A DNA stretch of 29,778 nt from an uncultured bacterium (GCA_964619725.1 CAZUFC010000105.1:1-29778), one strand, 5' to 3'; positions 970 through 29,000 are shown, numbered from the stretch's first letter. Notes: a model not told the origin generated them from the sequence alone. A program made the numbers and translations.

Positions 970-3900
970 TTATCGCCAACCGAAGCTCACGACATCCATC
1001 TCGCTGAGGATAGTTGCCGTTTGGGCATCCAGCAGTGCAGCCAAGCAGCGCAGCCCGTCGTTAGGCTCCGGGACATCCGGCCATACAAAGTTCAAAATAT
1101 TGTATGATACGGCCCCTGTTTCAATGTCGATGGGAACAGCGTCAAAGCTCCGCTGCCAATTCGGAAACCAGTAATAAACGCCGAAAGCATCCAGCATGAT
1201 CGCCAGGTGTTTTCCATACAGGTTTTGATTTCCGTAATTGACGACTGCTGCCGAAAGAGTGAACAGGTCGCCTTTCTGGAAGAGCTCGCCGGATAAGCTT
1301 AGATCGACTCCCAATTTATCTTTCGGCGGCTGTGGGTAATGGAATCCGATATCCGCTGTCCCAATGTCAGTCACCATGTCCCAGCGCGTGGAAGCGCCGG
1401 CTAGGGAAATTTGACCTTCCGGCGTACTATAACGGCAATCAGCCGCCGATTGGTTGCCTGCGTCCATGCAGGGACTGGTCGCTCCATCGCCTGCGTTCTT
1501 CTGACTCAGGCAATAGCGCCCGAACAATCCTGATCTGAACAGTGGGTCTTGATTTATGTTGCCGGGTCCTGAAAAATCTTCAGTGCCTACATCTGAATAT
1601 GCAATCATCGGCTCGCAAAAAGCTGCGTGAAAGTCATGATCCCTGTTTCCCCAGACGATGGAGTTCAGCAAATAAAAATTACATTTATAATTGTGAATTC
1701 CGCCGAACAACCAATCCGATTCATTATCCGTAACAGTGCAGTTTATCATTATGACGGAATCATCCGATATTCCTCCCCAAATATGCAGGCCGCCGCCGTC
1801 GCTGATGGAGTAATTTTCAGTCACTAAACAGTTAGTAAAAGTATTTGTCGATTCAAATAATGATTCATTGTTATTATCGGAATTTCTGATGAGTATGCCG
1901 CCGCCCTTATCGTCAGCGGCATTTCCTCTTACAATGCAATCGGTAACCGCCACGCTGGTATTGACCAATAGAAGTCCCCCGCCCTGATCAACCCTGTGAA
2001 TCGTATAAAATCTCGACATAACCTCATAACCGGCGTATCCTCCAGTGATGGTCAATCCGTGCAACCTGCATCCCTTTACATCGTAACCAATGACGGTCGG
2101 AGCGGTGTATTCGGCATTTAAAATCGTACCGACAGGATTGGAACTCATCAGGGTTACATGATCGATTAACGGAATGGGAAACGTTTCTCCCGTAGCGCTG
2201 GGTGAATATAGTCCCGGCGCTAATTGAACGACACCTGGAGAATCCTCCGAAGCCCTGATCCTTCTCATCGCTTCACGGATGGTTCGTACAGGCGTCTCAG
2301 GCGTCAAGCCGTCATTTTCATCATGACCTGCAGGATCGACATACTGCAGTGATGTTGAATTCTGCTGCGAACTATTATTTTCCAGTAAAAAGGTTTGCTG
2401 GGGCGCTATGAAATAACTCGATTCAGGTGACCCGTCAAAAAGGTTATTCTTAACTGTTACAAGGTCTTCTGAATACATCAGATGGCAGAGGTCCATCCCA
2501 TAATAGGCCCGATTGCCCGAAAAGACGTTGCTGCAATCGCCGTCGCCTCCGATGACGACGGAATAATTGTTGTATGCGAAATACACGCCGCCGCCCCACA
2601 CGGCTTCATTATCCGATATATCGCTGCCGGTCAGCTCCAGTTCAGCATAAGAGCTCATGTAAATGCCGCCCCCCGAGTGTTTGGCTGCGTTAGCGAAAAT
2701 ATCGCATTGGTCGATTTCATATATTCCATTGAATAGATAGATGCCGCCGCCGTCTTCCTGAGCGGCGTTAGAGGCAATAGTGCAATATTGAATATAACAG
2801 GGAGGCGAGTCCAGGGAAGTCATAAGTTCAATCCCTCCGCCATTCGATGCCTGGTTGTCGAATATTTCGCAATTCGTTATAACAGGTTTATCTCCGCAGA
2901 CCGATATGCCGCCGCCTGAAACGGCTGAATTATCGTATATTCTGCAGTTGTGCAGCGCCGGAATCAAATTGCTGCCCTCCATGTAGATGCCGCCCCCGAT
3001 GGAGGCGACGTTAGCGCAAATATCGCAGCGGCTGATGACAGGACAGGAATTGATACAGCATATGCCGCCGCCCCATGCGCCGAAACCGTTTTTAACGGTG
3101 AATCCGGAAAAATGAGAATTCATCGTGATGCCTTCGTGGAACGATACCGTCGTTTCTATTCCTCCTCCATCAATAATCGTTGCAGCGACGACTTCAGGAT
3201 CGGATGGATCGCTGCTTGATACCCGGACATTGTTGATATGGAAATCCAGATTCTCCTGATAAACTCCTTCTTTAACCACTATATCGTTCACAGATGCCAG
3301 ATTGAGCATGTTCAAAGCGTCCTGGATCAGTCTGTACGGCTCGGTTTCAATGCCCGTCCACGGTCCTTCTTCATTGTCGATATCCACGTGCGCCGGTTGA
3401 TTCGGCTTCAACAGAGGGTGCGTCTTCAATTCAAACTCGATACGATTGGAGAATCCGTCCAGGTCCGTATCGGCATCAGCATCGCTGGGATCGCCGGGAT
3501 TCATGCCGAAAATCGTTTCCCACTGGTCAGGAATCAGGTCCCCGTCAGCGTCTTTCATCTGAATTTTTAAGCTTAATTCCGGATCGCCCAGCAGATTTAT
3601 TCCATAAGCGCTATATCGAAAATTCAGGTCATAGGGAAACATAGCGAAAGTATCTTCACGCGCGTCCTGATGAGCAGCGCCCAGTCGGAGTTTCGGCGAG
3701 AATGCCCCGCAGTCGCGGTCGCCGACCAGTGCATCAACGAATTGCCGGTCCAGAGTTTGCGACGGAGAGAATGTGGATGCCAGTTTACCCAGACCCAACC
3801 TCGAATTGGCTATAACTGCAAAAGCGCCGTGTTCATAAGTGCAGTAAGCTTCCGCAATGCTGTCATTTGTGATGAAACCGCCTTCAAACGTATCATTATC

Positions 3901-5484
3901 GAACGCGCCGGCAAAGCAGCCCTGGGAATAGATCAGGCAGTAGTCGGTGTTGTTTAAAGTATCTACATCCGATCCCGTTGTTTTCATTACCGTTTCCGTA
4001 TTGGCGTGGCCCAGGTGATTGATGAAATGAACGCCGGCATTAATCTCAGCGATGATTGACTGTTTCGACCAGTCCTCTGCAGGATCCGTACGATCATATA
4101 GCCTGTTGACTGTTTCAAAGTGATAAATACAGCCCTGCGTGGACAATCCATGGGCCGTAGAACCGTAATAGGTTTCATTCTTGAGATTGCCGCCCCAATT
4201 GCTGATCCCGTTATGTCCAAGATACTCACCTGCCAGAACAGCGCGGCCCAGATAAGGACTGCCGGATGCCTCATACGCCAGCGTTTTCCTGACGAAATTT
4301 TGCATTTCCTCCACTGAATCTACCGGCGCACGACCCACAAATACTTCGGCGAACATATCCACTTCGCCTCCGCCAGGACCGTCAGGCGGTTCACCGTACA
4401 GCCCATTTGCATTTTCATCAAAAGAACCGTCCAGACATGCGTAATACATGTCGGAGGGAATGTTCGTAGTGTATGTTTCACCTGGAATACCCGCGGTAAA
4501 TCCACGAACCGGCGCTATGTTTTCACCCGTTTCACCGCCGTCTGCATCCCCGCCCAATAAGATGTATTCTGCGCCCCAGCTGCTGTATGCGTCAATTATA
4601 AAATTCCTGATGCGCGTACAATTGTCCTCCTCACCGTCAGGACGTTCGCCAGGATAATTCTCGTATATCCATTCTGTCGATACTACCGTCGAGGGAATCC
4701 CTCCGGCGATCTTTGCATCACATAGCCCCTGAAAACTAAAGGTCCCCGGCGACGACTTCAGCGCTTCACTCGTGATTATAATATATTGATAATTCTCCCT
4801 GGACTGCCGTTGCCGCCAAATATTTTCCAGTTGATCATACCAGTTGAGGTTTTGAGGATTATCAACGCAGTCGTGCACGCGTAAACGGTCTGACAGCTTA
4901 CCGCGGAATACCCTTACACTTTCGGCTCCTTCAAAATCGACAACGTTCGTCGTTACGATGACGCGAAGAACAGCGTAATACCAGTACTCCTTTTGCGCCG
5001 GAATGAATCTCACAGGATGCAAATTGAGAGTTAAAACACGGCAGCCGCATAAATTCTGAATGGAAACCGCACTGTAAAGGGCTGAGGGATATGGAGAAAA
5101 GGATGAGTAAATCGCCTCGGATGGCGAATCCGCCTCATGATCGCTGACCTGGTTTAATGGAATGGATCGCTGACCATAAGCCAAGCGCGTGATGCCCTCC
5201 AGGAAATTCTTTTCACCTGTTTCAACCCTTATTTTCGTTACAGTCGAATTAGGCGGCAATAATATCCTGGCAGCCTTCACCGGCAGTTCCGGCTTGCCTG
5301 CAGCGCCCAGCGTAAAGCAACCGGGAATCTCTATCTTTTGAAAGCCCGGCATTGATGATGAGGAAATCCCTGGTTTCTCAAACGCATATTCCTGGACGAT
5401 CGACTCGCCGGTGACGGTTGTTGACGTAATGAAGAGCGATACAATGACGGCAATAAAAATAATGCCCGTAAATACTTTATTCAT
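970..5484 (-). CDS. Secreted multidomain C25 (gingipain-like) cysteine peptidase: propeptide, catalytic domain, Ca-binding repeat, parallel beta-helix/DUF1565 region, FGW-type C-terminal domain
   Basis: Start placed at ATG 5484, with RBS AGGGAG and signal peptide MNKVFTGIIFIAV. Motifs include propeptide GKPELPV, YILLGGD, PSDMYYA, VGRAP, and the catalytic His (NHLGHA) and Cys (YSQGCFAG). Also seen are DADGDLIPDQWE, many GGGI beta-helix repeats and the DUF1565-like YVDPAGHDENDG..TPETPVRTI..LAPGLYS..GETFPI. Confidence 0.9.
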   Translation of the reverse strand: MNKVFTGIIFIAVIVSLFITSTTVTGESIVQEYAFEKPGISSSSMPGFQKIEIPGCFTLGAAGKPELPVKAARILLPPNSTVTKIRVETGEKNFLEGITRLAYGQRSIPLNQVSDHEADSPSEAIYSSFSPYPSALYSAVSIQNLCGCRVLTLNLHPVRFIPAQKEYWYYAVLRVIVTTNVVDFEGAESVRVFRGKLSDRLRVHDCVDNPQNLNWYDQLENIWRQRQSRENYQYIIITSEALKSSPGTFSFQGLCDAKIAGGIPSTVVSTEWIYENYPGERPDGEEDNCTRIRNFIIDAYSSWGAEYILLGGDADGGETGENIAPVRGFTAGIPGETYTTNIPSDMYYACLDGSFDENANGLYGEPPDGPGGGEVDMFAEVFVGRAPVDSVEEMQNFVRKTLAYEASGSPYLGRAVLAGEYLGHNGISNWGGNLKNETYYGSTAHGLSTQGCIYHFETVNRLYDRTDPAEDWSKQSIIAEINAGVHFINHLGHANTETVMKTTGSDVDTLNNTDYCLIYSQGCFAGAFDNDTFEGGFITNDSIAEAYCTYEHGAFAVIANSRLGLGKLASTFSPSQTLDRQFVDALVGDRDCGAFSPKLRLGAAHQDAREDTFAMFPYDLNFRYSAYGINLLGDPELSLKIQMKDADGDLIPDQWETIFGMNPGDPSDADADTDLDGFSNRIEFELKTHPLLKPNQPAHVDIDNEEGPWTGIETEPYRLIQDALNMLNLASVNDIVVKEGVYQENLDFHINNVRVSSSDPSDPEVVAATIIDGGGIETTVSFHEGITMNSHFSGFTVKNGFGAWGGGICCINSCPVISRCDICANVASIGGGIYMEGSNLIPALHNCRIYDNSAVSGGGISVCGDKPVITNCEIFDNQASNGGGIELMTSLDSPPCYIQYCTIASNAAQEDGGGIYLFNGIYEIDQCDIFANAAKHSGGGIYMSSYAELELTGSDISDNEAVWGGGVYFAYNNYSVVIGGDGDCSNVFSGNRAYYGMDLCHLMYSEDLVTVKNNLFDGSPESSYFIAPQQTFLLENNSSQQNSTSLQYVDPAGHDENDGLTPETPVRTIREAMRRIRASEDSPGVVQLAPGLYSPSATGETFPIPLIDHVTLMSSNPVGTILNAEYTAPTVIGYDVKGCRLHGLTITGGYAGYEVMSRFYTIHRVDQGGGLLLVNTSVAVTDCIVRGNAADDKGGGILIRNSDNNNESLFESTNTFTNCLVTENYSISDGGGLHIWGGISDDSVIMINCTVTDNESDWLFGGIHNYKCNFYLLNSIVWGNRDHDFHAAFCEPMIAYSDVGTEDFSGPGNINQDPLFRSGLFGRYCLSQKNAGDGATSPCMDAGNQSAADCRYSTPEGQISLAGASTRWDMVTDIGTADIGFHYPQPPKDKLGVDLSLSGELFQKGDLFTLSAAVVNYGNQNLYGKHLAIMLDAFGVYYWFPNWQRSFDAVPIDIETGAVSYNILNFVWPDVPEPNDGLRCLAALLDAQTATILSEMDVVSFGWR

Positions 5485-5518
5485 CTGTTTCTCCCTAGAA
5501 ATATCCAACCCAAAATTT

Positions 5519-5547
5519 ATACTACTAATAAAATCGTCATAAAGCAA
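5519..5547 (-). promoter_or_regulatory. Sigma70-type promoter for the C25 gene
   Basis: TTGCTT (5547-5542), 17-bp spacer, TAGTAT (5524-5519). This supports the 5484 start rather than the ORF-track TTG at 5547. Confidence 0.5.
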
Positions 5548-5786
5548 GAAAAATCGAAATGATTAAATACCCGTCATCGACAGGCCGAGATTACGCATGG
5601 ATGTCTGGGTCGAACAGGATTATTACTCATTCAAGTTCAGAACTCCTGAAACCAGGAGGTGAAATAACGAGGAATTGATTTGATACGAATTCGCATCAGC
5701 ACCCAATTTTCATACCTTTGCACCGGAAATCCGTTGATGAAAAGATGAAGTTCTTGCAATGGTTTTTCAGGAGAACATCCGGCTCT

Positions 5787-7511
5787 TCACTCAACCCCAT
5801 CCGATCCCGGTCCTTTAAATATCGACCACAGATCGTCGCTTCCCGCATACTGCAGTAAAATTGTATCACGATATTCCATAAGACGGGATTCGGCCTTCAA
5901 GCCCATGACAAATTCATTTATAAAAGGTGGAGTCATTAATATCAGAAAAAAAATGATCAGCGCTTTTGCCCGTAAAGATTCTTTCCGTATTCCCTGCTGA
6001 ACGACAGCAGAACAATACGATATCAATATCAGAAGGGCCGGAACGGTCGCCCTCATCGCCAGATCGTTGTTTTTTCCAAATTGAAAGGCGGTTGTCGCGG
6101 CGATCAGTACAAGACATATCCAGACTATCGTCGGAATCGAGAATTTAAGAAATCGACACGACAGCAGTATCAGAAAAACAGGAATCAACTCTATGCAAAG
6201 GAAAAACAGATATCTCATCACTCCTTCTTTCAGCACGAGCAGGTTGAACGGAACATGAGTTTTTTTGCCTGCATAAAAGAGAATAATCGTCGCTGTCAGT
6301 AATGCCGTCGCCATTAATTCCCATTTCTTCTTCTTAAAAAAGCGCAACCAGGCAATGCGTCGATTTTGACCGGTTTCTGAATACGCATATTTTAACACAA
6401 AAAAAAGAAATAAAGGCGCCGTTCCGATCCAGCAGAACAGAGAACTCGACAGCAGGAAAACGGACCAGATGCAGATTGGGAAAAGGAGCATTCTGTTTTT
6501 AAATATAAAAAGCACGGCCATTGTGATCAAACCTGATGCGAGATGCTGAGGCGCCCATTGCCACAGGGATATGAATGAGCTTATCTGAGCGAAATACGGC
6601 GTCCACCACTCAGCATGTTCTCCCCAGGCGAAAGGAGAAGGGAACATCCTGAATTTCTGGCCGGTATGAAATATTGAACGCCATGCCGTCAGCCATTTTT
6701 CAGATATACTATGCAGAAGGGAAGGCGTGTCTGCTGATGCCGAAAAAGACAGCAGTTCGTGAAATATGCCCGTCCAGAAATTCAAACCTGAAAAGACTAA
6801 AATAACCGGAAAAAAGTATGACCATGTTTTTAAATTGAAATTTTCGCCGAACAGCCTGACGCAGGCAACGGGAAGAAGCAGCAAACCCAGCGCCATTCCC
6901 GCTGTAAGCCACAAAAGAAAATTGAAAGACAACGCCCAACTGACCGCAGATAAAGGACCCGGTTCAATTAGTTTAAAGAGGATTACAGACAGATAGGTCC
7001 CCGGCAGATATAGAGAATAGTAATATACGAGACGGGAATCCACGAACGGAGAAGAGTATTTTTCCAGGTTGACGATTTGAGGATTCAGAGGATTGGAAAA
7101 CAGGGAATAAAGTATGCTTCTATGCTTCAACCAATCGCCGGTTCCTCCTCGACCCCAGAAAACGCCGGCGTAAGCAGCCGCAAGCAGTCCGAAAAACAGC
7201 AGGAACCAGTCTAATCTTAACCAGTATTCATCATTGCTGTCGAAAATGTCTGATTTAGAAATTTCCCTTAAGGACTTGAGCAAATAATATGTCAGAATCA
7301 AGGCGGCGAGCGTTCTGAACAGTATTCCCGCGGGCAGGGAAATAATAAAAAGAACAGCCGTCAGTCCCAGATAAACAATGGCGCACCGGAGAATGGATTT
7401 TAATTCTGATGCGCCGATGAAAACACTTTTCCCGTAAGTGATTCCAAAAAGCAGAAATATGCTTGAAAAAAGATAGAAAAGAAATATCTTGTAGGCAGCC
7501 GGCAGCATCAT
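5787..7511 (-). CDS. Polytopic membrane protein, probable GT-C-fold glycosyltransferase
   Basis: More than 10 hydrophobic segments. Loop motifs are GDWLKH..IL, LVYYY.LYLPG, QWAPQH and FGKNNDLAMR. ATG 7511 has GAGG upstream; the alternative start is GTG 7550. Confidence 0.7.
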   Translation of the reverse strand: MMLPAAYKIFLFYLFSSIFLLFGITYGKSVFIGASELKSILRCAIVYLGLTAVLFIISLPAGILFRTLAALILTYYLLKSLREISKSDIFDSNDEYWLRLDWFLLFFGLLAAAYAGVFWGRGGTGDWLKHRSILYSLFSNPLNPQIVNLEKYSSPFVDSRLVYYYSLYLPGTYLSVILFKLIEPGPLSAVSWALSFNFLLWLTAGMALGLLLLPVACVRLFGENFNLKTWSYFFPVILVFSGLNFWTGIFHELLSFSASADTPSLLHSISEKWLTAWRSIFHTGQKFRMFPSPFAWGEHAEWWTPYFAQISSFISLWQWAPQHLASGLITMAVLFIFKNRMLLFPICIWSVFLLSSSLFCWIGTAPLFLFFVLKYAYSETGQNRRIAWLRFFKKKKWELMATALLTATIILFYAGKKTHVPFNLLVLKEGVMRYLFFLCIELIPVFLILLSCRFLKFSIPTIVWICLVLIAATTAFQFGKNNDLAMRATVPALLILISYCSAVVQQGIRKESLRAKALIIFFLILMTPPFINEFVMGLKAESRLMEYRDTILLQYAGSDDLWSIFKGPGSDGVE

Positions 7512-7721
7512 TGTTTCGTCAACCTCAATATTGCATTTTATTGAATCCACGGCACAGAGGCATTAATGCCGCGGCAAGGTTCACCGGTTAAATGTACTGA
7601 GCGGCAGGGACATGTGTCAATCGAATCTTTGCTGCCGCTACCTCCGATGCAGGCTAAGATCAGCCGCTCAGGGAAATGCTCATAAGCCTTATTATCGGGG
7701 TTGAAGAAATCGAGGATATGC

Positions 7722-9305
7722 TCAGGGCAATTCAAAAATGTGTCCTGAATCATCCGCTCCATAAACTCGAACATCAAATGTATCTTTCAGATCATAGAAT
7801 TCTTCAGATTGGCGCTTATAACGAAAATTAGTTCCTATGACCGATATTTTTTTTAACTCATCTGGATCAGAGCGTCGGAGGATGTCGATAACGCAATCCA
7901 GCTTATAGCAGACAACCGGGTCCTCAGATTGAATTCTTCTTTTCCAGAAGGCGGCCTCACGACCGAACGGCGTAAAGATGATGGGCATCAAGCCTGTTTT
8001 TTCCTGCCGGTTAGCTGCTTCAGCAGCATAGGCCGCTTTGGCGTCCACAGTGAAATACCAGTGTGTATCGTATAATTTCGACAACCGCTCGGATAAATAT
8101 GACCAATCGTGAGCCGCCAGAGCCAGGATTATTAAAACCGGCAAGGCCGTTGCGAATTTTCCGGGCAGCCGTCGAACGACTCGATACGTGCCGTAGCCGA
8201 ATAGGATAACGGCTGAAGGCCAGAAAACATAAAAGTATTTCAGGTTCGGTCCCGTCAGGGCAAAAAACGCGGAACCGATCAATCCGATAAAAGCGCTCCG
8301 ACTTACAACCGCAGGACAACGTTTTGTAAATGTCGCAGCCAGACCGAGCAGCCAGAACGGCGCCGCAAAAACAGGCAACGGAGCTTTGCCGTACATCAAA
8401 TGAGTCGCTTCGACGAAAAAGTCATTCCTGTATAAATAGAGTATCGGCCATATCAGGGAACATCCCATAAATTCAAAGAAATCCTTAAAGTTCAAATCAA
8501 TGTAATGAGCTCTCCAGAAAAACTGATTAATATCCAACGACGAAACGGTCAAACTGAGGATAAAAATAAAAAGAAAAACTGCGGAGGAACCCACAGGCAG
8601 AAGGAGCTCATAGATGATTCGAGAGCGTTCGTTATGTCCGAAGGAGCGATACAGGCGCTCGATGAACCATACCGTATAGAAAGAAGCGACCGCCGCCCGA
8701 AACGACGAATAAGTAAAAGTTCCGGCAAGCAAAGTCAGAGGTATAACCGTCAAAGCTGTAATGCGTCGTTTCTTCACTGTGATCTCGTCATGTTCCGCTT
8801 TGCACAACCAGTATAATGCCGTAACCAGGAACAGCGGCGTCGCTGCGTTTCGGGTAAGTATCTGATTAAAACAAACGCCGTATCCGGAAACAGCGTAACA
8901 GCCGGCTGTGATCAACGCCGAACGCCAATTATGGAAATGGTTCACGAGCAGAAATAATGCGAGCGCAGTCATAGCAAATATTAAGGCATGGAAAAAGCGC
9001 ACGGGGTTCTCGCTGATGCCGAAAATTCTGAAAAGCGCCAGATTGCAGTAAGGCATCAGAGATTCGATCCCATCCACTTCCCAGGCATCCGTAAAAGAAG
9101 GCGCCAGAAGATAGAATCCGTCCAGAGGCATATTCGCAGCCTGCAGTAATTCCAGGCTTTCATCATTGATGAGTTCGCGATCCGGCAGAAAATGAAAGCC
9201 CAGAGCAATGACGAACGCAAGAAGAAAAATCAATGCAGGCAAAATTGGGCGCCTTTTTGAATCGCATGAATTGAAAGTATTCAATGTGCCGGCGCGGGGA
9301 CTCAA
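7722..9305 (-). CDS. ArnT/PMT-like (GT83/GT39, GT-C) membrane glycosyltransferase
   Basis: An N-terminal TM helix is followed by an acidic NDE motif, then LFRIFGISE.PVRF.HAL, about 11 TM helices and a soluble C-terminal domain. The TTG start is uncertain. Confidence 0.78.
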   Translation of the reverse strand: MSPRAGTLNTFNSCDSKRRPILPALIFLLAFVIALGFHFLPDRELINDESLELLQAANMPLDGFYLLAPSFTDAWEVDGIESLMPYCNLALFRIFGISENPVRFFHALIFAMTALALFLLVNHFHNWRSALITAGCYAVSGYGVCFNQILTRNAATPLFLVTALYWLCKAEHDEITVKKRRITALTVIPLTLLAGTFTYSSFRAAVASFYTVWFIERLYRSFGHNERSRIIYELLLPVGSSAVFLFIFILSLTVSSLDINQFFWRAHYIDLNFKDFFEFMGCSLIWPILYLYRNDFFVEATHLMYGKAPLPVFAAPFWLLGLAATFTKRCPAVVSRSAFIGLIGSAFFALTGPNLKYFYVFWPSAVILFGYGTYRVVRRLPGKFATALPVLIILALAAHDWSYLSERLSKLYDTHWYFTVDAKAAYAAEAANRQEKTGLMPIIFTPFGREAAFWKRRIQSEDPVVCYKLDCVIDILRRSDPDELKKISVIGTNFRYKRQSEEFYDLKDTFDVRVYGADDSGHIFELP

Positions 9306-9471
9306 TTATTCACCCAAGTCAATATCAGATAACTTTTTCAAAAAATGTCTGCAGGAACTGATAATTGTTCATCAATATCTCAGACGGTTCGTTGTTTTTA
9401 TGTGCTGTTCAATTTGCACAGCATACCTTTTCCAGATTCACAGAAAATCCCTCCTCAAAAATCGAGGAGGT

Positions 9472-9500
9472 AATATAACAATGGCGTATTGCGAAGTCAA
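9472..9500 (-). promoter_or_regulatory. Sigma70-type promoter upstream of the glycosyltransferase pair
   Basis: TTGACT (9500-9495), 17-bp spacer, TATATT (9477-9472). Confidence 0.55.
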
Positions 9501-9823
9501 AGAAATGGCTGTTTTTCAAATTGCGGTCGGATACGATTAACGAATGTCGATAACTTGTGTACATCAAAGAGGCGTCAGAGTCCTATTGGGACTGACCAAA
9601 TGACGGTTACAATTTTTGCGTATCTGTTCTCTTCTTATCCGTGATGATACGTGTTGTCCGCTGTTGCCGGAGACCCAGGAATCGTTTCCGCGAACCTGTT
9701 GTATAGTGAAGTTATTTTTGGATGAAGCCTAAGGACGAGAGCGTCGGAATGGTCGGGCAGGAAATGCTGACGCCCCACTGTATTTCCGAATAGAAATCAC
9801 CTTAAACCTGTCTTGATTGCACT

Positions 9824-11413
9824 TTAGCGGAAAAGTTCTCGCCGGCGGAACGTTGTATGCAGCAGAAATCCGCCAAAGCAGATCAGCAGAAAAACAATTC
9901 CGCAGGTATCGGAAGACGGTATCGGCGCCGTCGTCGGCGTCACGGTTACTGTGGGCGTCAACGACGGCGACGGCGTATCTGTCGGTGTAAATGTCGGTGT
10001 TTCGGTGGGCGTCAGTGTGGGTGTATTCGTCGGTGTGCTTGTAGGATAGAAGCTGCATGCTATGGCTTGACCGGGCTCATAAGAATTGTTGAATACCGGG
10101 TCGGCAGTGACGGAGAAACTGACGGCGGATGATGCTGTTTCCGGGGCGGCATACCAGAAGGAAGGATATGAAATCGCCGGCGAGCAAACATTTACGTACG
10201 GGCAACCGGAAATATCGCCGGAAGCATCCGTTTGCATCAGAAAAGCATCATTGCTGCCGAAACCGAATGAATCAGTCGTTCCCGCGATTACTATGGCATC
10301 ATCCGGTCGCACGGTCAGTCCGTTGGGATATTCGTTTCCCCCGCCGCCGCAGGTTCTGGCCCATATGAAGTTACCGGCGCCATCGAGTTTCACGGTCATT
10401 ATATCGGCATTTCCCATACCATAACTGAAGGTTGTCCCCGTCGCAACTACACCGGAATCCGATGTGACGTCCAGGCTGTACAATGACTCTCCGGAAGAAC
10501 CGCTTACAAGGCGTGACCATAACAGATTGCCGGCCGGATCGATTTTACAGATCATATACGCACCATAGGTAAATCCCAGGGACTTCGTGGTGCCGCCGAC
10601 ATAGAAAGAACCATCCGGGGCTTCAGCGACTGATCGTCCATAATCGTCGGCAGCGCCGTCCACAACCCGTGACCATGTGATATTCCCGGAGTCGTCGACT
10701 TTGATGATCAACATGGCCAGGTTACCATAAGACTGCCCGAACGACCGGCTTTGACCGGTCACCAGGCATCCGCCGTCGCTGACGGCCGTAGCCGTGCAAC
10801 CAAATTCCATGTTCGTTCCGCCGTATGTTCGTGTCCAGAGCGGCGTACCCTCGGAGTCGCATTTCATTAATAAAAAATCAGAACTGCCTGCACCATAAGC
10901 GGTAGTGACGGCGCAGATGATCAATCCCCCGTCAACCGTCTCCTCCACTGAATACACCCGTTCGCCGGTCGTTCCGCCATACCTTTTATACCACAGCAGC
11001 GTACCGTTATCATCGATCTTGTACAGCGACATACTCTGGTATGTTGAAAACGATTGACTGGTTCCGGAACAGACGAATGCACTGTCGGAAGTAACTGTAA
11101 TATATTCCGAGTAATCGTTGTTGGCGCCTCCAAGCAGCCGACCCCAGACGATCTTTCCCTGATCATCATGACGAACAAGAAAATAATCCATGTATGATCC
11201 GGACTGGTACAGTCCTGTTGAAATACAACCGCCGTCTCCGGTTATACAGGAACGGTAAAAAATTTCATAGGATGACGATCCATATATGCCGAACCAGGCG
11301 TTACCCGCATGGCAAACAGTGCTTAAAAAAGGCAGTAAGACCAGAACAAAAGAGATGGCTGGGATCAGAAAGATAATCGTTCGTATTCGCAGAGACCATT
11401 TAACTATCTGCAT
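9824..11413 (-). CDS. Secreted seven-repeat beta-propeller surface protein with Thr/Pro linker and IPTL-CTERM-like tail
   Basis: RBS GAGGAG and a signal peptide ending VCHA. Seven repeats of about 52 aa follow the pattern W.R..GG...(D/E)...V..T.DGG....G.T.S.G....D....K.D..G. A TPT linker leads to PIPSSDTCG, a TM helix and RRRELFR. Confidence 0.88.
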   Translation of the reverse strand: MQIVKWSLRIRTIIFLIPAISFVLVLLPFLSTVCHAGNAWFGIYGSSSYEIFYRSCITGDGGCISTGLYQSGSYMDYFLVRHDDQGKIVWGRLLGGANNDYSEYITVTSDSAFVCSGTSQSFSTYQSMSLYKIDDNGTLLWYKRYGGTTGERVYSVEETVDGGLIICAVTTAYGAGSSDFLLMKCDSEGTPLWTRTYGGTNMEFGCTATAVSDGGCLVTGQSRSFGQSYGNLAMLIIKVDDSGNITWSRVVDGAADDYGRSVAEAPDGSFYVGGTTKSLGFTYGAYMICKIDPAGNLLWSRLVSGSSGESLYSLDVTSDSGVVATGTTFSYGMGNADIMTVKLDGAGNFIWARTCGGGGNEYPNGLTVRPDDAIVIAGTTDSFGFGSNDAFLMQTDASGDISGCPYVNVCSPAISYPSFWYAAPETASSAVSFSVTADPVFNNSYEPGQAIACSFYPTSTPTNTPTLTPTETPTFTPTDTPSPSLTPTVTVTPTTAPIPSSDTCGIVFLLICFGGFLLHTTFRRRELFR

Positions 11414-11522
11414 AAAATTCTCCTCAGTGATGATAAATTCAATTTCATGCCCGACATACTCTCACTTTTTATTTGATGTCAAAAGAGTTAAAGAGTGGAT
11501 AAAATTCCTCTATCCTCGTCTA

Positions 11523-11584
11523 CAAGTGAAAAATTTTTCACTTGCCGACAAGGATAAATATAAGAAAAAAGAAAAACAAGTCAA
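11523..11584 (-). promoter_or_regulatory. Promoter plus perfect 22-bp palindromic operator
   Basis: TTGACT (11584-11579), 16-bp spacer, TATATT (11562-11557). CAAGTGAAAAATTTTTCACTTG at 11523-11544 is a perfect palindrome just downstream. Confidence 0.5.
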
Positions 11585-11702
11585 AGTGAGAGAATTAACG
11601 GAAAAACAACAATTTCACATCTCCTGACATTCGCCAATAAAAAATTGTGAAATTTTTGACGAAAAAGCTGTAGACGTTCGAATAAATTCTTGTAAAACAA
11701 AG

Positions 11703-11734
11703 TCCCCCCGCCTGTGGGGGGATATAGGGGGGGC
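11703..11734. repeat. GC-rich REP-like palindromic element
   Basis: TCCCCCCGCCTGTGGGGGGA hairpin followed by TATAGGGGGGGC. A split inverted relative lies at 21407-21420 plus 21643-21658. Confidence 0.6.
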
Positions 11735-11820
11735 TAAAAACTGTCTATGTCTATGCCGAAACTCAGTGTAAAAAAATCAATTGATTTCAATATGTTAGGT
11801 TGTCCTTATCAGGAGTTTTG

Positions 11821-11919
11821 AATTTAAAATTCATTTCGCACGGTATTCCGACAACGACAATGATTCATCAGCTAATATATTAAAAAGTAATTAAGTAGAG
11901 CTTATCCTAATTCGTATTC
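11821..11919. repeat. Dispersed repeat family 1 (MITE-like), inverted partial copy of 21421-21512
   Basis: Manual alignment gives 77 of 91 aligned positions identical to the reverse complement, with one 6-nt indel in the CGACAA hexamers. Confidence 0.85.
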
Positions 11920-11973
11920 CATTTCAGAAAGTTCCAATTTAATTTAACGGATTCCAACAACTGAAAGTATGTT

Positions 11974-14900
11974 CTACTCCCATCCGAACGTCCAGGAATC
12001 ATAAAGACCAATAATTTCATTCATTTCCTGATTCGTCATAGCGGACCAGAACACGATATCCTGTGCCGAACCGGCTCCTTCAGGCCAGATGAATTCCTCG
12101 ATTGCCAATAATTCAGAGGGTCCATGCGGAACGAACCGTGTGTAGCAGCCGGGAATTGAAGTCCATTCGGGTGCGAAGATCAGCAACCCATTCACATCCA
12201 GTATCAGGAAAAGGGGCGTCGTCATGAGGGCATCGCCGGGGTTGTAGATATGGATTTTCAGGTAACAGGAATCGCCGGCCTGGTACAAGTGAGACGGCAT
12301 TTCAATGGAGACGCCGAGTTGTTCTGTTACGGTGGGAGTAACGGTTATAAAAGGAGTCATATCGGGCGTTTCAGTCGGAAAGATTACTGTGCCTGTGCGG
12401 GTCGGCGGAGGCGTCTGGTAAGGAGTATTCGTGGGAGTGGCTGTGGGAGTGAAGGTCGGCGGCGTTGAGGATGTGGGCGTATATGTCGGCGGAATTACGG
12501 TCGGAGTTGACGTCGGCGTGTAGGTATGCCAGAAAGTCGGCGTTGATGTGGGACTGAAGGTCGGCGTTTTGGTGGGCGTATGCGTTGGAGGAGGCGGTGT
12601 TGGGGTGGCGGGCTCTTCGCACTGTCTTACGTATGAGACCATGACGTCGTCGATGTTCCATCCGCAGAACGTCCAGCCCTGGTCCGTATCGCCCATGACC
12701 CACCGGATATATACGCTGTTTTCGCCGTCCGCATATTCTGAAATGTCATATTCCGCCAGGGTCCAAACTTCATCGGAAAATTGAGTGGAAGGGTTCTCCC
12801 AGATATTGTTCCAGTTTGAACCGTCCGTGCTGACTCTTATGTAAGCGTGATCGTAAATGTTCCGTTCCACGCCGAGCCACCTCCAGAAGGAGAGCGTGAC
12901 GCCTTCGCAGCCCGTGCAATCGATGGCGGGCGTCGTCAGATACCTTTCAGGCATATAATTAGTGTAATCGCCGTTGAGATTGTATCCGTAGACGTTCGGG
13001 CCGGTGTAACCTGAACTGGGGTCGGGATTCCCGTGCTCGCCTCCGTTACCGTTGGGTTGGCCCCATTCCCATTGTCCGCCTGAAATGGACCATCCCGGAT
13101 TCGAAGACATATCTTCTGCCATCAATAGGACCCGCTCGTAGGTCGTCTGCAGATAGTTGTATCCTCCGTTGTCGTCCATCCCGGTATTGCCGGCTTCATC
13201 CGTCGATTCCACGTAAAAGACATAAGCCGTGCACTCTTCCAACCCCGTCAGTTCCACATAATGGTCCGTGGTCAATTCTGTTGCTTCGCTGGTCTGATCG
13301 GGCGTTCCTTCGCCGTAAACGACTCTGCTCGATGACTCTTCATCCGTCGTCCAGTGAATCGTCATACCGCTCTCCGTTATATCCGTCGCTGAAACCGATG
13401 AAATCGCCGGGGCAAGCGCATCGACCGGGACTGTCGCCGTCTTGGATATGTTGAAGCCGCCGTGTCCGTCGTCTTCATCAATATAGCACGCTATTACCGC
13501 ATCTGAATGAACTATTTCCAGTACCCCGTTACCGGTCACCGGCGAACCTTCAACCAGTCCGATGCCGCCTTCAAATATGCACGTCGAAAAACCCGTTTCC
13601 GTTAAAACGACCGTCTCTTCATCGCCCACGAACGTTGAAAACGTTATCTCAACCGTGTCAGGAGCCCCTCCGTTCTCATTCAAATCCAGGTCTCTCACCG
13701 TCGCCGTCGCCTCGCTTCCCGGCGCATACACCGGTTTGTCCAGCGCGATAGCCCCGTCGCTGGACATTACGGACGACATGCCTAAATTCGGATTCCCCCA
13801 GATGGTCCACTCCGCTATCTCGTATTTGTTGTAACTCCAGCCGCCGATCTGATACACCGTACTCAACCCGTGCTGCATGGCTGCTCCCTGCGAATAATCG
13901 CCCGAGGTCGTCGCCGTCGTAAAATAATAATCCAGAGATTGACTCGATCCGTCATTGGGATGATTCCATCCCGGACATCCCAGCGCCACCTTGGTCGCTC
14001 CCACGAAACCGACCGCTCCATTCTTCAGCATCCGCGCTCCTATGTTCGTATAATCCGTGTCGGAATTGCTGCATGCATCGGCAAATATTATTGCAGGATA
14101 GTCGTCATTCAGATTGGGACAATCCGTGGACTCAATAAACGCAGGCTGGCCCAGACCAAGAATATAGCATCCGTGGTAAGAACCATGCCCGGCCCAGTTT
14201 ACGAACGCATAAGTATTATACGGCCAGTTCGCCATCACGTTGCTGTGAACAAGCTCATAATCGCAGGGATAGGACGAATAATAACTCCCATTCTTTTCAT
14301 ACATCCTCGTAAAGGTCCAATCGGACATCCACGGTTGATCTATCTTCTCCTCCATCAAAACCGCATTGTCCGTGTCAGCCCAGAAATAAGCTCCCAACAG
14401 CAGCATGTTCTTCTTAAAAGAGGGATCATCGTTCATCTCGTAATCGACCGATTTCTCACAGATACTCTGGATAGTACCGAAGTCGCTCCAGGGTATCCGT
14501 CCCACGTTGACTTCCGCATAAAAATCGAAATCGTCGTTGTTCTCCCCGTAACGGCCGTCGCCGTCCTCATCCCAGGACTGATTATCAGGATATGACAACT
14601 CCGCAAAATAAAAATCCGTCAGCGGCTCGCCATATCCCAAATCCTGCCACACTTCCCTCATCGGAACATCCGAATGATGCCCTACTAAAAAGACATCCTC
14701 TATTCCCCATTCCGATCCGGGATACTTGTCTCGTAAAAAATTCCGCATTTTCTGAGCCGTATCAACGCCGGAATAATTGGAATTGATCCAGGAAATCGTC
14801 ACCACTTCCACATTGCGGCCCTTGATCGTCTCCCAGTTAACCAGAGACGAAACCGCAGAGACGTATGATGAAGTCGTTATGATGACATAATCATGCAGAC

Positions 14901-15588
14901 CGCGGCCTGACGGCGTATCGGGATACCATTCCTGCGCCTGCTCATAATTCAGTATCAGTTCCCTGGCGCGCTTCTCCATACGAGGCTGATTGTCGATCAT
15001 CACCGCAGAGTCATCCAAAACTTCAGACATGGAATAGTATATCTCAACAGTCAGGGCTGAATGGTGGAGAAGCTTTTTAGTCTGCGGATTATACTGAATT
15101 GGAGTTATCCTCACATCAACCAGGTTATATTTTCGAAACCGGGCTGTTCTGACAAATTCGCCGATTGATGCAGGAAAGTAAGCCGACGACCCGTAAACAG
15201 ACTCCTTCATACTCCTGTATTCTTCAACCGATCCACCATACTCGATCGAATCCTCTTTACCGATAAACCGGGACAACTCACGGGGTCCTATTTCAAAATC
15301 GCCTTCTATGACTGTCTGCTCGCCGGACAATATCGTGAGCGATTCGTATCGCGCTCCCGGAGGCAACGCTATCGCGTAAATACGAGAAGGCAGGGCCGGC
15401 GCTCCTGGAAGCGGATAAAGCCCGTATTCCTCCATCGTTAATTTATGATTTCCGTTCCGAACCGTTATATCATAATCATTACCCGGCAGCTCGACTTGAA
15501 GCCTGGCGGCATGAGAGGGTCCCGCCGTAAAAATGACCAGTAACGTTATACTTACTGAAAAAAGCAACATTCGAAATTTTGTTTCCAT
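11974..15588 (-). CDS. Secreted C25 (gingipain-like) cysteine peptidase with Ig-like, FN3-like and jelly-roll domains, Thr/Pro linker and FGW-type C-terminal domain
   Basis: Start at ATG 15588 (METKFR.., RBS AAGGA, signal peptide ending PSHA). Motifs include PGAPALP propeptide, YVIIT, TDFYFA, VGRIP, catalytic His (NWAGHGS), Cys (FADACSN) and WGNP. Downstream are WTTDE..S.V.YG (FN3-like) and LTTPAID..LSFWRW..GWNIDDV (jelly-roll). Confidence 0.9.
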   Translation of the reverse strand: METKFRMLLFSVSITLLVIFTAGPSHAARLQVELPGNDYDITVRNGNHKLTMEEYGLYPLPGAPALPSRIYAIALPPGARYESLTILSGEQTVIEGDFEIGPRELSRFIGKEDSIEYGGSVEEYRSMKESVYGSSAYFPASIGEFVRTARFRKYNLVDVRITPIQYNPQTKKLLHHSALTVEIYYSMSEVLDDSAVMIDNQPRMEKRARELILNYEQAQEWYPDTPSGRGLHDYVIITTSSYVSAVSSLVNWETIKGRNVEVVTISWINSNYSGVDTAQKMRNFLRDKYPGSEWGIEDVFLVGHHSDVPMREVWQDLGYGEPLTDFYFAELSYPDNQSWDEDGDGRYGENNDDFDFYAEVNVGRIPWSDFGTIQSICEKSVDYEMNDDPSFKKNMLLLGAYFWADTDNAVLMEEKIDQPWMSDWTFTRMYEKNGSYYSSYPCDYELVHSNVMANWPYNTYAFVNWAGHGSYHGCYILGLGQPAFIESTDCPNLNDDYPAIIFADACSNSDTDYTNIGARMLKNGAVGFVGATKVALGCPGWNHPNDGSSQSLDYYFTTATTSGDYSQGAAMQHGLSTVYQIGGWSYNKYEIAEWTIWGNPNLGMSSVMSSDGAIALDKPVYAPGSEATATVRDLDLNENGGAPDTVEITFSTFVGDEETVVLTETGFSTCIFEGGIGLVEGSPVTGNGVLEIVHSDAVIACYIDEDDGHGGFNISKTATVPVDALAPAISSVSATDITESGMTIHWTTDEESSSRVVYGEGTPDQTSEATELTTDHYVELTGLEECTAYVFYVESTDEAGNTGMDDNGGYNYLQTTYERVLLMAEDMSSNPGWSISGGQWEWGQPNGNGGEHGNPDPSSGYTGPNVYGYNLNGDYTNYMPERYLTTPAIDCTGCEGVTLSFWRWLGVERNIYDHAYIRVSTDGSNWNNIWENPSTQFSDEVWTLAEYDISEYADGENSVYIRWVMGDTDQGWTFCGWNIDDVMVSYVRQCEEPATPTPPPPTHTPTKTPTFSPTSTPTFWHTYTPTSTPTVIPPTYTPTSSTPPTFTPTATPTNTPYQTPPPTRTGTVIFPTETPDMTPFITVTPTVTEQLGVSIEMPSHLYQAGDSCYLKIHIYNPGDALMTTPLFLILDVNGLLIFAPEWTSIPGCYTRFVPHGPSELLAIEEFIWPEGAGSAQDIVFWSAMTNQEMNEIIGLYDSWTFGWE

Positions 15589-15801
15589 TTTTTTGTCCTT
15601 TGCATTAAAAAAAATCAACACCCATGGACGTTTTCTTAAAAATCTTCTCTTCTGAATACCGTGAAAAAACTGTTCTCCAGGCAGAGTCATTACACCCCGA
15701 AATCTTTACATTTTTTCTTTTCGCAAATTCATTTCCCTACCGTCTCGATCAAGTCGTTAAACTTGAGTCACCTCTGACTATATTCATTCGAAAATTTAAA
15801 A

Positions 15802-26035: not shown

Positions 26036-29000
26036 ATGAATCAGAAAAGCGAAAAAAACGGAAAAAAGAAAAAATATGAATGCAAATTAAAATTTAGCTA
26101 CTGGCGTAAAGAAGATGAACGAAAACTCGAAGAAGATCGGAAAAAAGGTATTGAAAAGGGAAAAAAAGATAAAGCAGAGAAGAAATTAATTGAAAAAATC
26201 AATGAAAAAGATAACACGAGAGACCAGATCAATCACACGAAAGGTGAAGCCAGAGAACTTTTCAATAAAGCGCTGACGTTCTTGAGAATTCATTTTAATT
26301 ACTATCTTACTGGCTCCTGGATGCTTCCGGAAGGTTTCTGTTTTTCCAAGAAAGATGATAATTCTAAGGACAATCCGGAAAAAAAATACAAAATCACCGG
26401 TCCGCAAAATGAAAAAGATGCTTTCAGAATAGATTTTGAGAATTGGAATGAAGAAGAAGCGCCTCATATTTTATTTGAGCTGATTGAATTTCTTAAATGT
26501 ACACGGTTTGTGCATGAAATTCCATACTGGTACTGCGAGAATATAAAGCAGGAAATTTTAAGTAACCTTGATTCATCAGGTGATGATGGAAAATCTGAAG
26601 ATACCGACAAATTAAATGACTTATTGAAGAAAGAATTCATAGGCTCCGAATTAAACAAAATAATCGATAAAATAAGAACCAAAGAAAATAAAATAGAATC
26701 CAATGATTTATTGAAAGTGGAAATGCTCTACAATCTCGGAATTATCGGGAATATTTCTAATGAAATTGAAAATGATAAAATACAATCTGATGAGAAAAAC
26801 GGTGAAAACAAGAAATTGCTGAGAACAAAAATAGACCTTGCCGAAGGTAAAGACGAACTTTTGAAAAAAGACAGCCCTTCACTTCTAAAAGAACTTGAGT
26901 TTCAGAATTTTTTCGGCTTTTTAGATGGACTGGTTATTTATCGTCGGGAAAACGAGAAATTAATAGATGACGAAACGGTAACTCAAGATATCAATAATAT
27001 GAATCAAGTGGACTTTCTGAAGTTTTTTGATTTTTGCATTGATTTTTTGAGAAAGGTTTTCTGGAAGAAAATATTCTGTAATGAATCCGGAGTTCTGGAA
27101 GGCTTTTCTGGAATGTCTTATTATGAAAGTGATTTATTTAATGGAAATTTGAAACTCAGGTTTTTCGGGCCTCATCTCCCTAAAATACATTTTGATCTGA
27201 CGAGTCTTTTTAAATCATCGGAGCGAAGGAACAAGGATATTTCATATTGGTATTACAAGAATATTCACATTCACTACAATTTAAAATTGGGCGCTGCATT
27301 TCAAAATAAATTACGAAAATATGTGGAATCATTATATCAGGTTACGTCGCAGGACATTGAAAAAAGAACATCTGAGAGGGAAAATTCAGACAATATCGTA
27401 CAACTGACGGAATGGAAAGAGGCGTTAATCGGTAAAGGATTTGAATTGAGCGAGGAATTTCCGCCATTCGACGAATTCTGGAAGAAAACAAATGAGGATA
27501 CTTGCTTTACAATAATGGAAGAAAAGCGCTTACTAAACCTAACTGACCAGGAAAACGATGATCTTTTTATACTTGGACTTACAGAGTTAACTTATCAAAT
27601 GGGCATGTTGCATTTCGGGAACTCTTTTTTGGGAGAAGAAGAGCCGAAGACGGTCATAACGGTTTTCGATATACCGGACCCGAATGTTTTGAGTTCAAAG
27701 CTTTTTGGTCTTAAGACTTCTATTCCTGGATTCGATGATCTGGTTGGCGGCGGTTTGATATTGAATCCTCCTGCAGAAGGAGAATCAAAACCAGGACTTC
27801 TGGGAGTAATAAGAGGTCAGTTTGCCGGAGGAAAATCTACTTTCGCCACTCAATTAGCGCTTGAGATGGTGCGAAAAGGAGGAGCAGGTGTTTTGCTTGT
27901 TTTGGAACAGTCGATTCATGAGGTCATGGCGCAGATTCAACATTTCGGGTGGTCCAAAGGAGAGTGCAAGTTGTTTACCGTCGTGAAAATAAAGGAAGAT
28001 GAACCTGATTACAGAGGAATAATTAAAAACAAAATGGTCGACTCCCTGAAAGCAAGTAAAGGATTTTTATGTATATACAGATTAAGCGATTATTCCTTGG
28101 ACATGTTTCAGGACACTTTACAGGACTTGGCAGACATGTTTGATGATATATATAAAGACCTTCTAAAAAAGGGACACTTCAAAGACAAGGAATTCAATCC
28201 GCGTTTTATCGTCGTAGACCCTATTGATGCCGTTCATTTAATAAGAAAAAAAGAGGCTGAAGACCCTTATTTATTAAGAAACAAAACACAGGAAGAACTT
28301 GAAATCGTAACCAAAGAAAAAGGCATAATGCTCTGGTTAACGACAAGTGTTGTTGAAGATGATCCCCGCAAGTCGCCCTATTATTTTTTGCCGAATATTG
28401 GAGATGTTGTCGTTAATCTTTCATTGACGCCTTCAGAATCGAACATATCGACGAGAGAAGAGATTAATGTTCCGCCGATGCGTTTATTTGAATTCGAAAA
28501 AGTGCGGACTCAACGTTTTGCCAAAGGCGTGCATCCTTTTGAAATTAACAGTCGTAAGGGAATACATATCTATCCGGCAGGCGATGCTATAACGAAATTC
28601 GTAACATGGTTCAACAGGGAAAATAAGATTGAGGAGATTGAAGCGCCGGTATCACTGGGACATGAATCGTTGAACCTCGCATTAGGAACGAAAGGCGTTC
28701 GTCGATGCTCAGTGACAACTCTTATGGGGCCGACCGGTTGCGCTAAAACTGAGCTGGCGCTTCTTTACTTGCTCGGAAATTGGAAAGAACGAAAGATGAA
28801 AAATGAGCGGTCGTTGTTTGTCGGCTTTCGCGACACATGGGAAAGCGTGGAGGAAATTCTTAAAGGTCCTGTAGGCACTCAACTGGATTGCAGAACCAAA
28901 GAAGAAGCTCAAGAAATAATGACGCTATTGGAACTCGATGTCGGAAGCAACACCAGCGCCTGGATTTTTCAAAAAATAAAGGATGAATTCAAGAGATTAA

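Follow-up and report, generated by a model that had tools for sequence, protein, structure and literature searches.

An unnamed, mostly C-terminal beta-sandwich module on two gingipain-like proteases and many other predicted exported proteins of an uncultured bacterium, possibly a docking or anchoring domain

Two gingipain-like peptidases of family C25 with unlike middle parts were found in a 29,778-nucleotide stretch of DNA from an uncultured bacterium (GCA_964619725.1, CAZUFC010000105.1:1-29778; the whole stretch is called the window here), and both of them end in a tail of 114 amino acids (aa). What such a tail does at the end of two different proteases is the question raised by this locus. 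The original prediction, made from the sequence alone, took it for a lineage-specific cargo tag or surface attachment domain serving an undescribed export pathway, in analogy to the C-terminal domain (CTD) of T9SS (the type IX secretion system). The window is contig C105 of a 9.17-Mb genome bin of 344 contigs (G000; completeness 90.9%, contamination 6.5%), and the open reading frames (ORFs) of this bin were taken from stop to stop. Our results showed that both tails belong to one unnamed beta-sandwich module, about 115 residues long and folding independently, called the tag below, which forms a new domain family within a known kind, the modular C-terminal surface-targeting domains. Its role is read here as that of a non-covalent docking or anchoring module, with a rough probability of 0.45. 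The two proteases and their parts are the following.

970..5547, minus strand: P0001, ORF of a C25 (gingipain-like) peptidase, 1525 aa from a TTG start
5404-5484, minus strand: signal-peptide-like stretch of P0001, with the likely start ATG at 5484 (read from the translation)
4951-5346, minus strand: Propeptide_C25 of P0001 (E 6e-08)
3568..4785, minus strand: Peptidase_C25 domain of P0001, residues 255-660 (E 8.3e-55)
973..1314, minus strand: tag domain copy 1, 114 aa (AlphaFold2 model, pLDDT 95.7)
11974..15690, minus strand: P0002, ORF of a C25 peptidase, 1238 aa
15508-15588, minus strand: signal peptide of P0002 ending in ...SHA, with the likely start ATG at 15588 (read from the translation)
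14938-15441, minus strand: Propeptide_C25 of P0002
13783..14889, minus strand: Peptidase_C25 domain of P0002, residues 268-636 (E 2e-37)
13186-13407, minus strand: fn3 of P0002
12319..12618, minus strand: Pro/Thr-rich linker of P0002 between body and tag, 100 residues
11977..12318, minus strand: tag domain copy 2, 114 aa (score of 131.5 bits with the profile of 120 copies)

Both proteins were assigned to C25 by sequence, with Peptidase_C25 scores of 187 bits (P0001) and 129.6 bits (P0002) against a curated cut-off of 23 and Propeptide_C25 scores of 32.5 and 33.3 bits against a cut-off of 22. The middle parts differed: P0001 contained a DUF1565/beta-helix part, followed by a short, not Pro/Thr-rich linker to the tag (...DIGFHYPQPPKDK), and P0002 contained the fn3 domain and the 100-residue Pro/Thr linker. 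The tails were formed by the last 114 codons (973-1314 and 11977-12318) before the stop codons at 970-972 (TAA) and 11974-11976 (TAG). They aligned end to end with 27 of 115 positions identical (BLASTP E 2e-8), which confirmed that two C25 peptidases with unlike middles share homologous tails. A hidden Markov model built from these two tails alone matched about 200 further ORFs of G000 at E<1e-5, and the likeness of the tails was thus far beyond chance. After one iteration, which defined the carrier set of G000, 226 significant copies were found on 225 ORFs, in line with the many paralogs that had been foreseen. The copies ended within 5 residues of the stop in 210 cases, at 6-20 residues in 7 and farther off in 9. 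The domain measured roughly 105-123 aa over the family, so that the fixed length of 114 residues was not upheld. Only N26, L41, W53, F76, W78 and P79 (first-tail numbering) were kept at 90% or more in a set of 120 aligned copies (A1). The terminal aromatic-Gly-Trp, which had been called invariant, proved otherwise. Over the 200 C-terminal copies used for the end-motif and linker statistics, an exact “FGW” end was present in only 33, and an aromatic-x-aromatic motif, followed by 0-5 residues, was present in the last 8 residues of 167.

Most carriers appeared to be exported. A crude heuristic detected signal-peptide-like starts in 174 of 208 full-length carriers; among 1500 control ORFs, 552 (37%) passed as well. 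A lipobox was found in only 9 of the 174. A Pfam scan of 124 of the 225 carriers, clustered loci first, found a family at E<=1e-6 in 73. Peptidases of many kinds were present (S8 subtilases, M14, M6, S15, C11, C13, C25 and neprosin), together with PAD_porph, alpha-amylase, GH57, GH114, 5'-nucleotidase, AhpC/TSA and FGE-sulfatase proteins and with beta-helix/PMP, FG-GAP, PKD, Kelch and BNR proteins. C25 accounted for only 9 of the 124 scanned carriers, which excluded a domain restricted to these peptidases and agreed with the predicted signal-peptide carriers of unrelated function.

The domain matched no known family. Neither tail matched any Pfam-A or NCBIfam model at E<=1, as had been supposed. 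The 120 copies gave only single stray matches to unrelated families of Pfam-A and NCBIfam (best E 0.004), and against Pfam with the carbohydrate-binding module (CBM) and dockerin families included the stray matches were at E 0.011 or weaker. A profile search of the PDB sequences yielded only chance matches, to LRP propellers, and a search of the ESM Atlas with the tag yielded only unnamed clusters. Public copies were annotated as “hypothetical protein”; no description of the domain was found in the literature searched, nor is it mentioned in the portion consulted of the main text of the one paper on the phylum (PMC8248873). In the AlphaFold2 model of the first tail (pLDDT 95.7, pTM 0.85), the tag was an eight-strand beta-sandwich. 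The fold matches listed (Foldseek ranks to 50 and 50 VIA entries) were generic Ig-like sandwiches, of which the nearest compact one was a CARDB domain (PDB 3IDU; Foldseek TM 0.60, E 2.5e-4; VIA Z 9.2, with a root-mean-square deviation of 2.7 over 95 residues). Glycan-binding or matrix-binding domains were among those listed (RbmA, Z 9.3; CARDB, Z 9.2; the Wzt carbohydrate-binding domain, Z 7.7), and accessory domains of glycosidases scored similarly to CARDB. For the modelled domain, these matches give a fold class, generic Ig/CARDB-like, and no function. CARDB (PF07705) resembled the tag in fold class and in the “...GD...L.....N.G” pattern of the first hairpin, but PF07705 matched none of the 120 copies at E<=1, and a comparison by hhalign with one CARDB domain from G000 gave a probability of 0.6%. 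CARDB is not known to have a terminal preference or a role as an address.

The position of the tag was predominantly, not strictly, terminal. Two apparently intact proteins of G000 carried it near the N-terminus, one consisting of signal peptide, tag, TIG and FGE-sulfatase (C153) and the other of signal peptide, tag and 5'-nucleotidase (C40). Internal copies were found in C179 and C104, a two-copy protein in C112, and several copies each in the public proteins P0004 and P0121. The public protein P0081 and orthologs from two other genomes shared the architecture of C153. A free C-terminus of the tag is not required. The notion of a strictly terminal domain thus held for the 210 end copies, and the bar on other positions fell with the N-terminal, internal and tandem copies. 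These exceptions, and the conservation of the N-terminal form in orthologs, weaken the proposal that a free terminal strand is recognised and shift weight to the surface-attachment option. A Pro/Thr/Ser-rich linker (30 residues, at least 50% P/T/S) preceded 129 of 200 copies, compared with 37 of 995 background windows. Only 58 of 197 tags had their closest counterpart on a protein with a related body, where chance alone would give 8.6, and comparison of the sequences indicates that tags move between protein bodies.

A second C-terminal tail was found on 163 ORFs of G000, composed of a Pro/Thr linker, the motif [IVL]P[AVTS], a membrane helix and a basic cluster. No ORF was common to these 163 and the 225 tag carriers: the two tails are mutually exclusive. 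One example lies in the window between the two proteases.

9824..11413, minus strand: exported beta-propeller protein, 529 aa, with membrane-helix tail (NF047494 SBBP repeat, 58 bits)
9827-10051, minus strand: tail of this protein, with Pro/Thr linker, ...APIPSS..., membrane helix and basic cluster

No NCBIfam match at E<=0.1 was obtained for the 78 residues at the end of this protein, and a single exosortase-family match was found in G000 (PF09721, 35.5 bits, C134:13003-13455). The membrane-helix tail may be an unnamed PEP-CTERM-like signal. The C25 proteins used both tails, since among 21 C25 places in G000 there were 13 with the tag, 5 with the membrane tail and 3 PorU-like ones with a different end, and in the tag-negative genome G001 both C25 proteins whose C-termini were read ended in the membrane tail. 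Together with the zero overlap, this suggests that the tag is interchangeable with a membrane anchor. Two giant ORFs also ended in the membrane-helix tail, one of 12092 aa (C34:1691-37966, plus strand) with six repeats of about 895 aa (CARDB, Wzt_C and CarboxypepD_reg) and one of 8482 aa (C39:32530-57975, plus strand) with six repeats of about 1310 aa (beta-helix/NosD). These giant membrane-anchored proteins were considered as cohesin-like scaffolds; their repeats were of the CARDB/Wzt_C/CarboxypepD_reg and beta-helix kinds.

The tag is restricted to one rare phylum, apparently CSSED10-310. The phylum sample comprised 14 genomes including G000, to which 17 from outside were added in a 31-genome set. 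A profile search of this set matched 10 of the 13 other phylum genomes, with 61 to at least 148 copies each, the tag-negative ones being G001, G002 and G004, and 1 of the 17 outside, weakly (E 5e-5). At E<=1e-30, matches were found in 11 of 14 phylum genomes and in 0 of 187 outside. Of 1.84 billion representative proteins, 2700 gave a match at E<=1e-3, and 2317 did so at the stricter E<=1e-10; in 144 of the best 150 of these 2700, the tag ended no more than 5 aa before the stop. Related loci from named records, searched with a 10-copy alignment, were titled candidate division CSSED10-310 or belonged to unlabelled bins in 44 of 44 cases.

The tolerance of position, the linkers, the second tail and the shuffling of tags favor docking or anchoring over a signal read from a free C-terminal strand, and the tag probably tethers its carriers to the cell surface. 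Carriers would be exported by Sec through ordinary non-lipoprotein signal peptides and would then cross the outer membrane, with seven secretins at hand. The module would hold the enzyme or adhesin on a component of the cell envelope or matrix, on a flexible Pro/Thr-rich leash, much as dockerins, SLH modules and those T9SS CTDs that are retained do. Binding to such a target, location at the surface and retention there are what we infer from these features. Several points weigh against this assignment. A pure binding module would need neither the terminal position of 93% of the copies nor the aromatic end motif, whereas both would suit a signal recognised at the terminus. Copies at the N-terminus, inside a protein or in multiple were few (about 5 of 225 in G000 and about 4 of 150 public ones) and could be exaptations. 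The signal-peptide test was crude, the carrier scan covered 124 of the 225 ORFs with clustered loci first, the structural matches were generic and without function, and no binding partner or ligand of the tag was found. In addition, the cargo list (C25, PAD_porph, M14 and beta-helix) parallels the T9SS cargo of Porphyromonas.

Comparison with the known modules of this kind showed likenesses in layout. Dockerins, which are calcium-binding helical modules, number up to hundreds per genome. The tag resembles them as a small non-catalytic module, mostly C-terminal, on flexible linkers and on many different enzymes, and proteases and inhibitors are among the carriers; dockerins work at either protein end (PMC12484212). 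In contrast to a dockerin, the tag is an all-beta sandwich without a Pfam dockerin match, no cohesin-like partner was found for it, and its host belongs to a phylum predicted to consist of Gram-negative heterotrophs (PMC8248873). The tag's place in the layout is that of SLH and PEP-CTERM elements, which close surface proteins behind a spacer rich in Ser, Thr and Pro. It differs from both as a soluble folded domain without a membrane helix, a basic cluster or a model match; the PEP-CTERM-type layout belongs instead to the 163 ORFs that carry no tag. The likeness to the T9SS CTD was one of logic: in both cases an Ig-like sandwich stands last on unrelated proteins exported by Sec, in tens to hundreds per genome, with overlapping cargo classes (C25, PAD, M14 and beta-helix adhesins). 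The extreme C-terminal position on signal-peptide proteins (210/226; 174/208) is shared by both. PMC10202324 describes the T9SS CTD as a seven-strand Ig-like sandwich with surface motifs B, D and E and terminal lysines, and some of these CTDs as kept as anchors. The tag, by contrast, has about 115 aa and, in the model, eight strands instead of the seven given there, ends in an aromatic-x-aromatic motif and not in a lysine-rich one, occurs also in N-terminal, internal and tandem positions, and usually follows a long Pro/Thr linker.

Sequence and profile similarity to the T9SS CTD was likewise absent, as the original prediction had stated. At E<=1, TIGR04183, TIGR04131 and PF18962 matched none of the 120 copies, and when the 120-copy profile was compared by hhalign with 11 genuine T9SS CTDs, the probability was 0.6%. 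No copy matched a model of the type B CTD (TIGR04131/PF13585). The TIGR04183 model found no CTD in G000 and found 10 in G013 and 1 in G012, so the model itself works. These 11 canonical type A CTDs (…NYPNPFN…) were located only on contigs of 2.7-6.4 kb in the incomplete phylum bins G013 and G012 (L116-L118, L122-L132) and may be binning contamination from an FCB-group organism. The proposed check for sprA and porV agreed, because in G000, which is 90.9% complete, no match was found for SprA (two models), PorV, GldL or GldM; the control genomes were silent for all but PorV. The core models used were TIGR04189, PF14349, NF033710, TIGR03517 and TIGR03513. For GldK, the scan covered two FGE-sulfatase proteins, whose scores of 73 and 156 bits lay below the cut-off of 350. 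With regard to PorP/SprF, two weakly PorP-like barrels were found for 225 carriers, one of them adjoining a carrier.

The strongest competitor to docking is a true sorting signal, which would be recognised in the periplasm by a yet-undescribed outer-membrane translocon, perhaps with a sortase-like protease, and then be removed by cleavage or retained. It is kept alive by the terminal position (in G000 and among the best public matches) together with the aromatic end motif, and it would also suit exported non-lipoprotein carriers of unrelated function, the large copy numbers across the phylum and the many C25 paralogs of G000, two of which matched PorU partially. We consider it a doubtful but serious candidate. 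Three candidate readers of the tag were tried and rejected. The first were two PorU-like C25 proteins, C69 and C70, which scored 230 bits against the PorU model NF033707 (cut-off 420). Orthologs above 600 bits were found only in G003, G007, G008 and G011 and were missing from the tag-positive genomes G005, G006, G009 and G010, each at least 90% complete. These two proteins, of about 1100 aa (C69:23976-27275 and C70:1674-4955), each lay divergently beside a protein with an SdrD_B domain. The second, C153 with its N-terminal tag and FGE-sulfatase, was considered as a hub, but its middle part had orthologs in only two other genomes. The third were two outer-membrane barrels of the TraF_2 family (C97:22127-23338, plus strand, and C68:14723-15949, minus strand) with a borderline PorP/SprF match (PF11751, 22.2 bits; TIGR03519, 23.7 bits). 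The C97 barrel begins 19 bp past the stop of a tag-carrying GH57 protein, but the barrels were present in 13 of 14 and 14 of 14 phylum genomes, including the three tag-negative ones. A complex prediction of the C97 barrel with the tag, run without controls, scored 0.00 and speaks neither for nor against an interaction. Among 822 neighbor ORFs of the 225 carriers, no family stood out except TonB-dependent receptors, with 4 of their 6 members, and large clusters linked by repeats.

No translocon or sortase tracking the tag was thus found among the candidates examined. Position, carriers and novelty bore out the original choice between cargo tag and surface attachment, and the claimed export pathway gained no co-tracking machinery. 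Co-occurrence has little power here because only 14 related genomes were at hand and the tag probably arose once. The N-terminal, internal and tandem copies, with the N-terminal form kept in orthologs, and the missing T9SS components also speak against a sorting signal. That the tag is the cargo signal of a new outer-membrane sorting pathway of CSSED10-310, independent of T9SS and exosortase and with its machinery among the unannotated genes, is possible but rather unlikely. Seven ORFs of the secretin family were counted in G000, an unusually large number of channels like those of the type II secretion system or the type IV pilus.

A second alternative moves the target outward. As a substrate-binding or matrix-binding module of the carbohydrate-binding type, the tag would hold enzymes on an external polymer or on the organism's own biofilm matrix and not on the envelope. 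The modelled fold, which is like those of CARDB, RbmA, the Wzt carbohydrate-binding domain and the accessory sandwiches of glycosidases, would suit such a function, as would the flexible position and the tandem copies. Pro/Thr linkers are typical of junctions between enzymes and CBMs, and the linkers before the tag are like them. Nevertheless, Pfam and CBM families gave only the stray matches mentioned above, and one shared external substrate is unlikely for carriers that include proteases, nucleotidases, redoxins, FGE-sulfatase-like proteins and adhesin-like beta-helices. This function therefore seemed improbable.

Still less probable by a clear step is a structural role without any address function, in which the tag would cap the protein or help it to fold, for instance by acting as an intramolecular chaperone or by blocking proteolysis. 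Sandwich domains of a comparable kind stand at the C-terminus of some secreted proteases, and in our reading the strongly conserved L41, W53, F76 and W78 are hydrophobic or aromatic residues of the kind usual in a sandwich core. However, long disordered linkers would be awkward for a folding aid, about 225 unrelated carriers and the movement of the tag between bodies do not suit one, and a membrane-anchor tail takes the same position in a mutually exclusive manner. The last alternative, a very divergent T9SS CTD served by a divergent T9SS, shares the logic by which exported proteins finish in an Ig-like sandwich and could point to the weak PorP/SprF-like barrel just downstream of a carrier gene, but it is close to refuted by the absent model and profile matches, the lack of any CTD in G000 under a working model, the lack of any core part found and the lack of a lysine-rich end motif.

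Two multi-pass membrane proteins are encoded between the tagged genes of the window, both on the minus strand. The one at 5787-7550, with about 10 hydrophobic segments, was without family, and the ESM Atlas returned only unnamed clusters for it, with a weak resemblance to DUF2298/DUF6077. The one at 7722-9305 matched PMT_2 (glycosyltransferase-like) at E 2.7e-6. As a speculation, the two proteins could glycosylate the Pro/Thr linkers of their neighbors. Farther along, 26036-29746 (plus strand) encodes a protein of 1236 aa whose N-terminal part is rich in lysine and which matches KaiC-type ATPases in three stretches (E 7e-23); this gene lies in a stretch of 35.5% G+C, compared with about 47% elsewhere in the window, and may be an acquired island.

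The analysis adds the exceptions in position, the figures on linkers, a second tail that never occurs together with the tag, and three candidate readers that were rejected. With docking or anchoring as the preferred role, one unnamed module sets the layout of nearly the whole predicted exoproteome of this organism, from proteases and glycosidases to nucleotidases and adhesins. As a compact module with a confidently predicted fold, the tag could serve surface display. Identification of its reader would help annotators to spot secreted or surface proteins of an uncultured lineage that are now labelled “hypothetical protein”, and would bring to light a new system of docking on the surface of a Gram-negative cell or else a new route of outer-membrane sorting.

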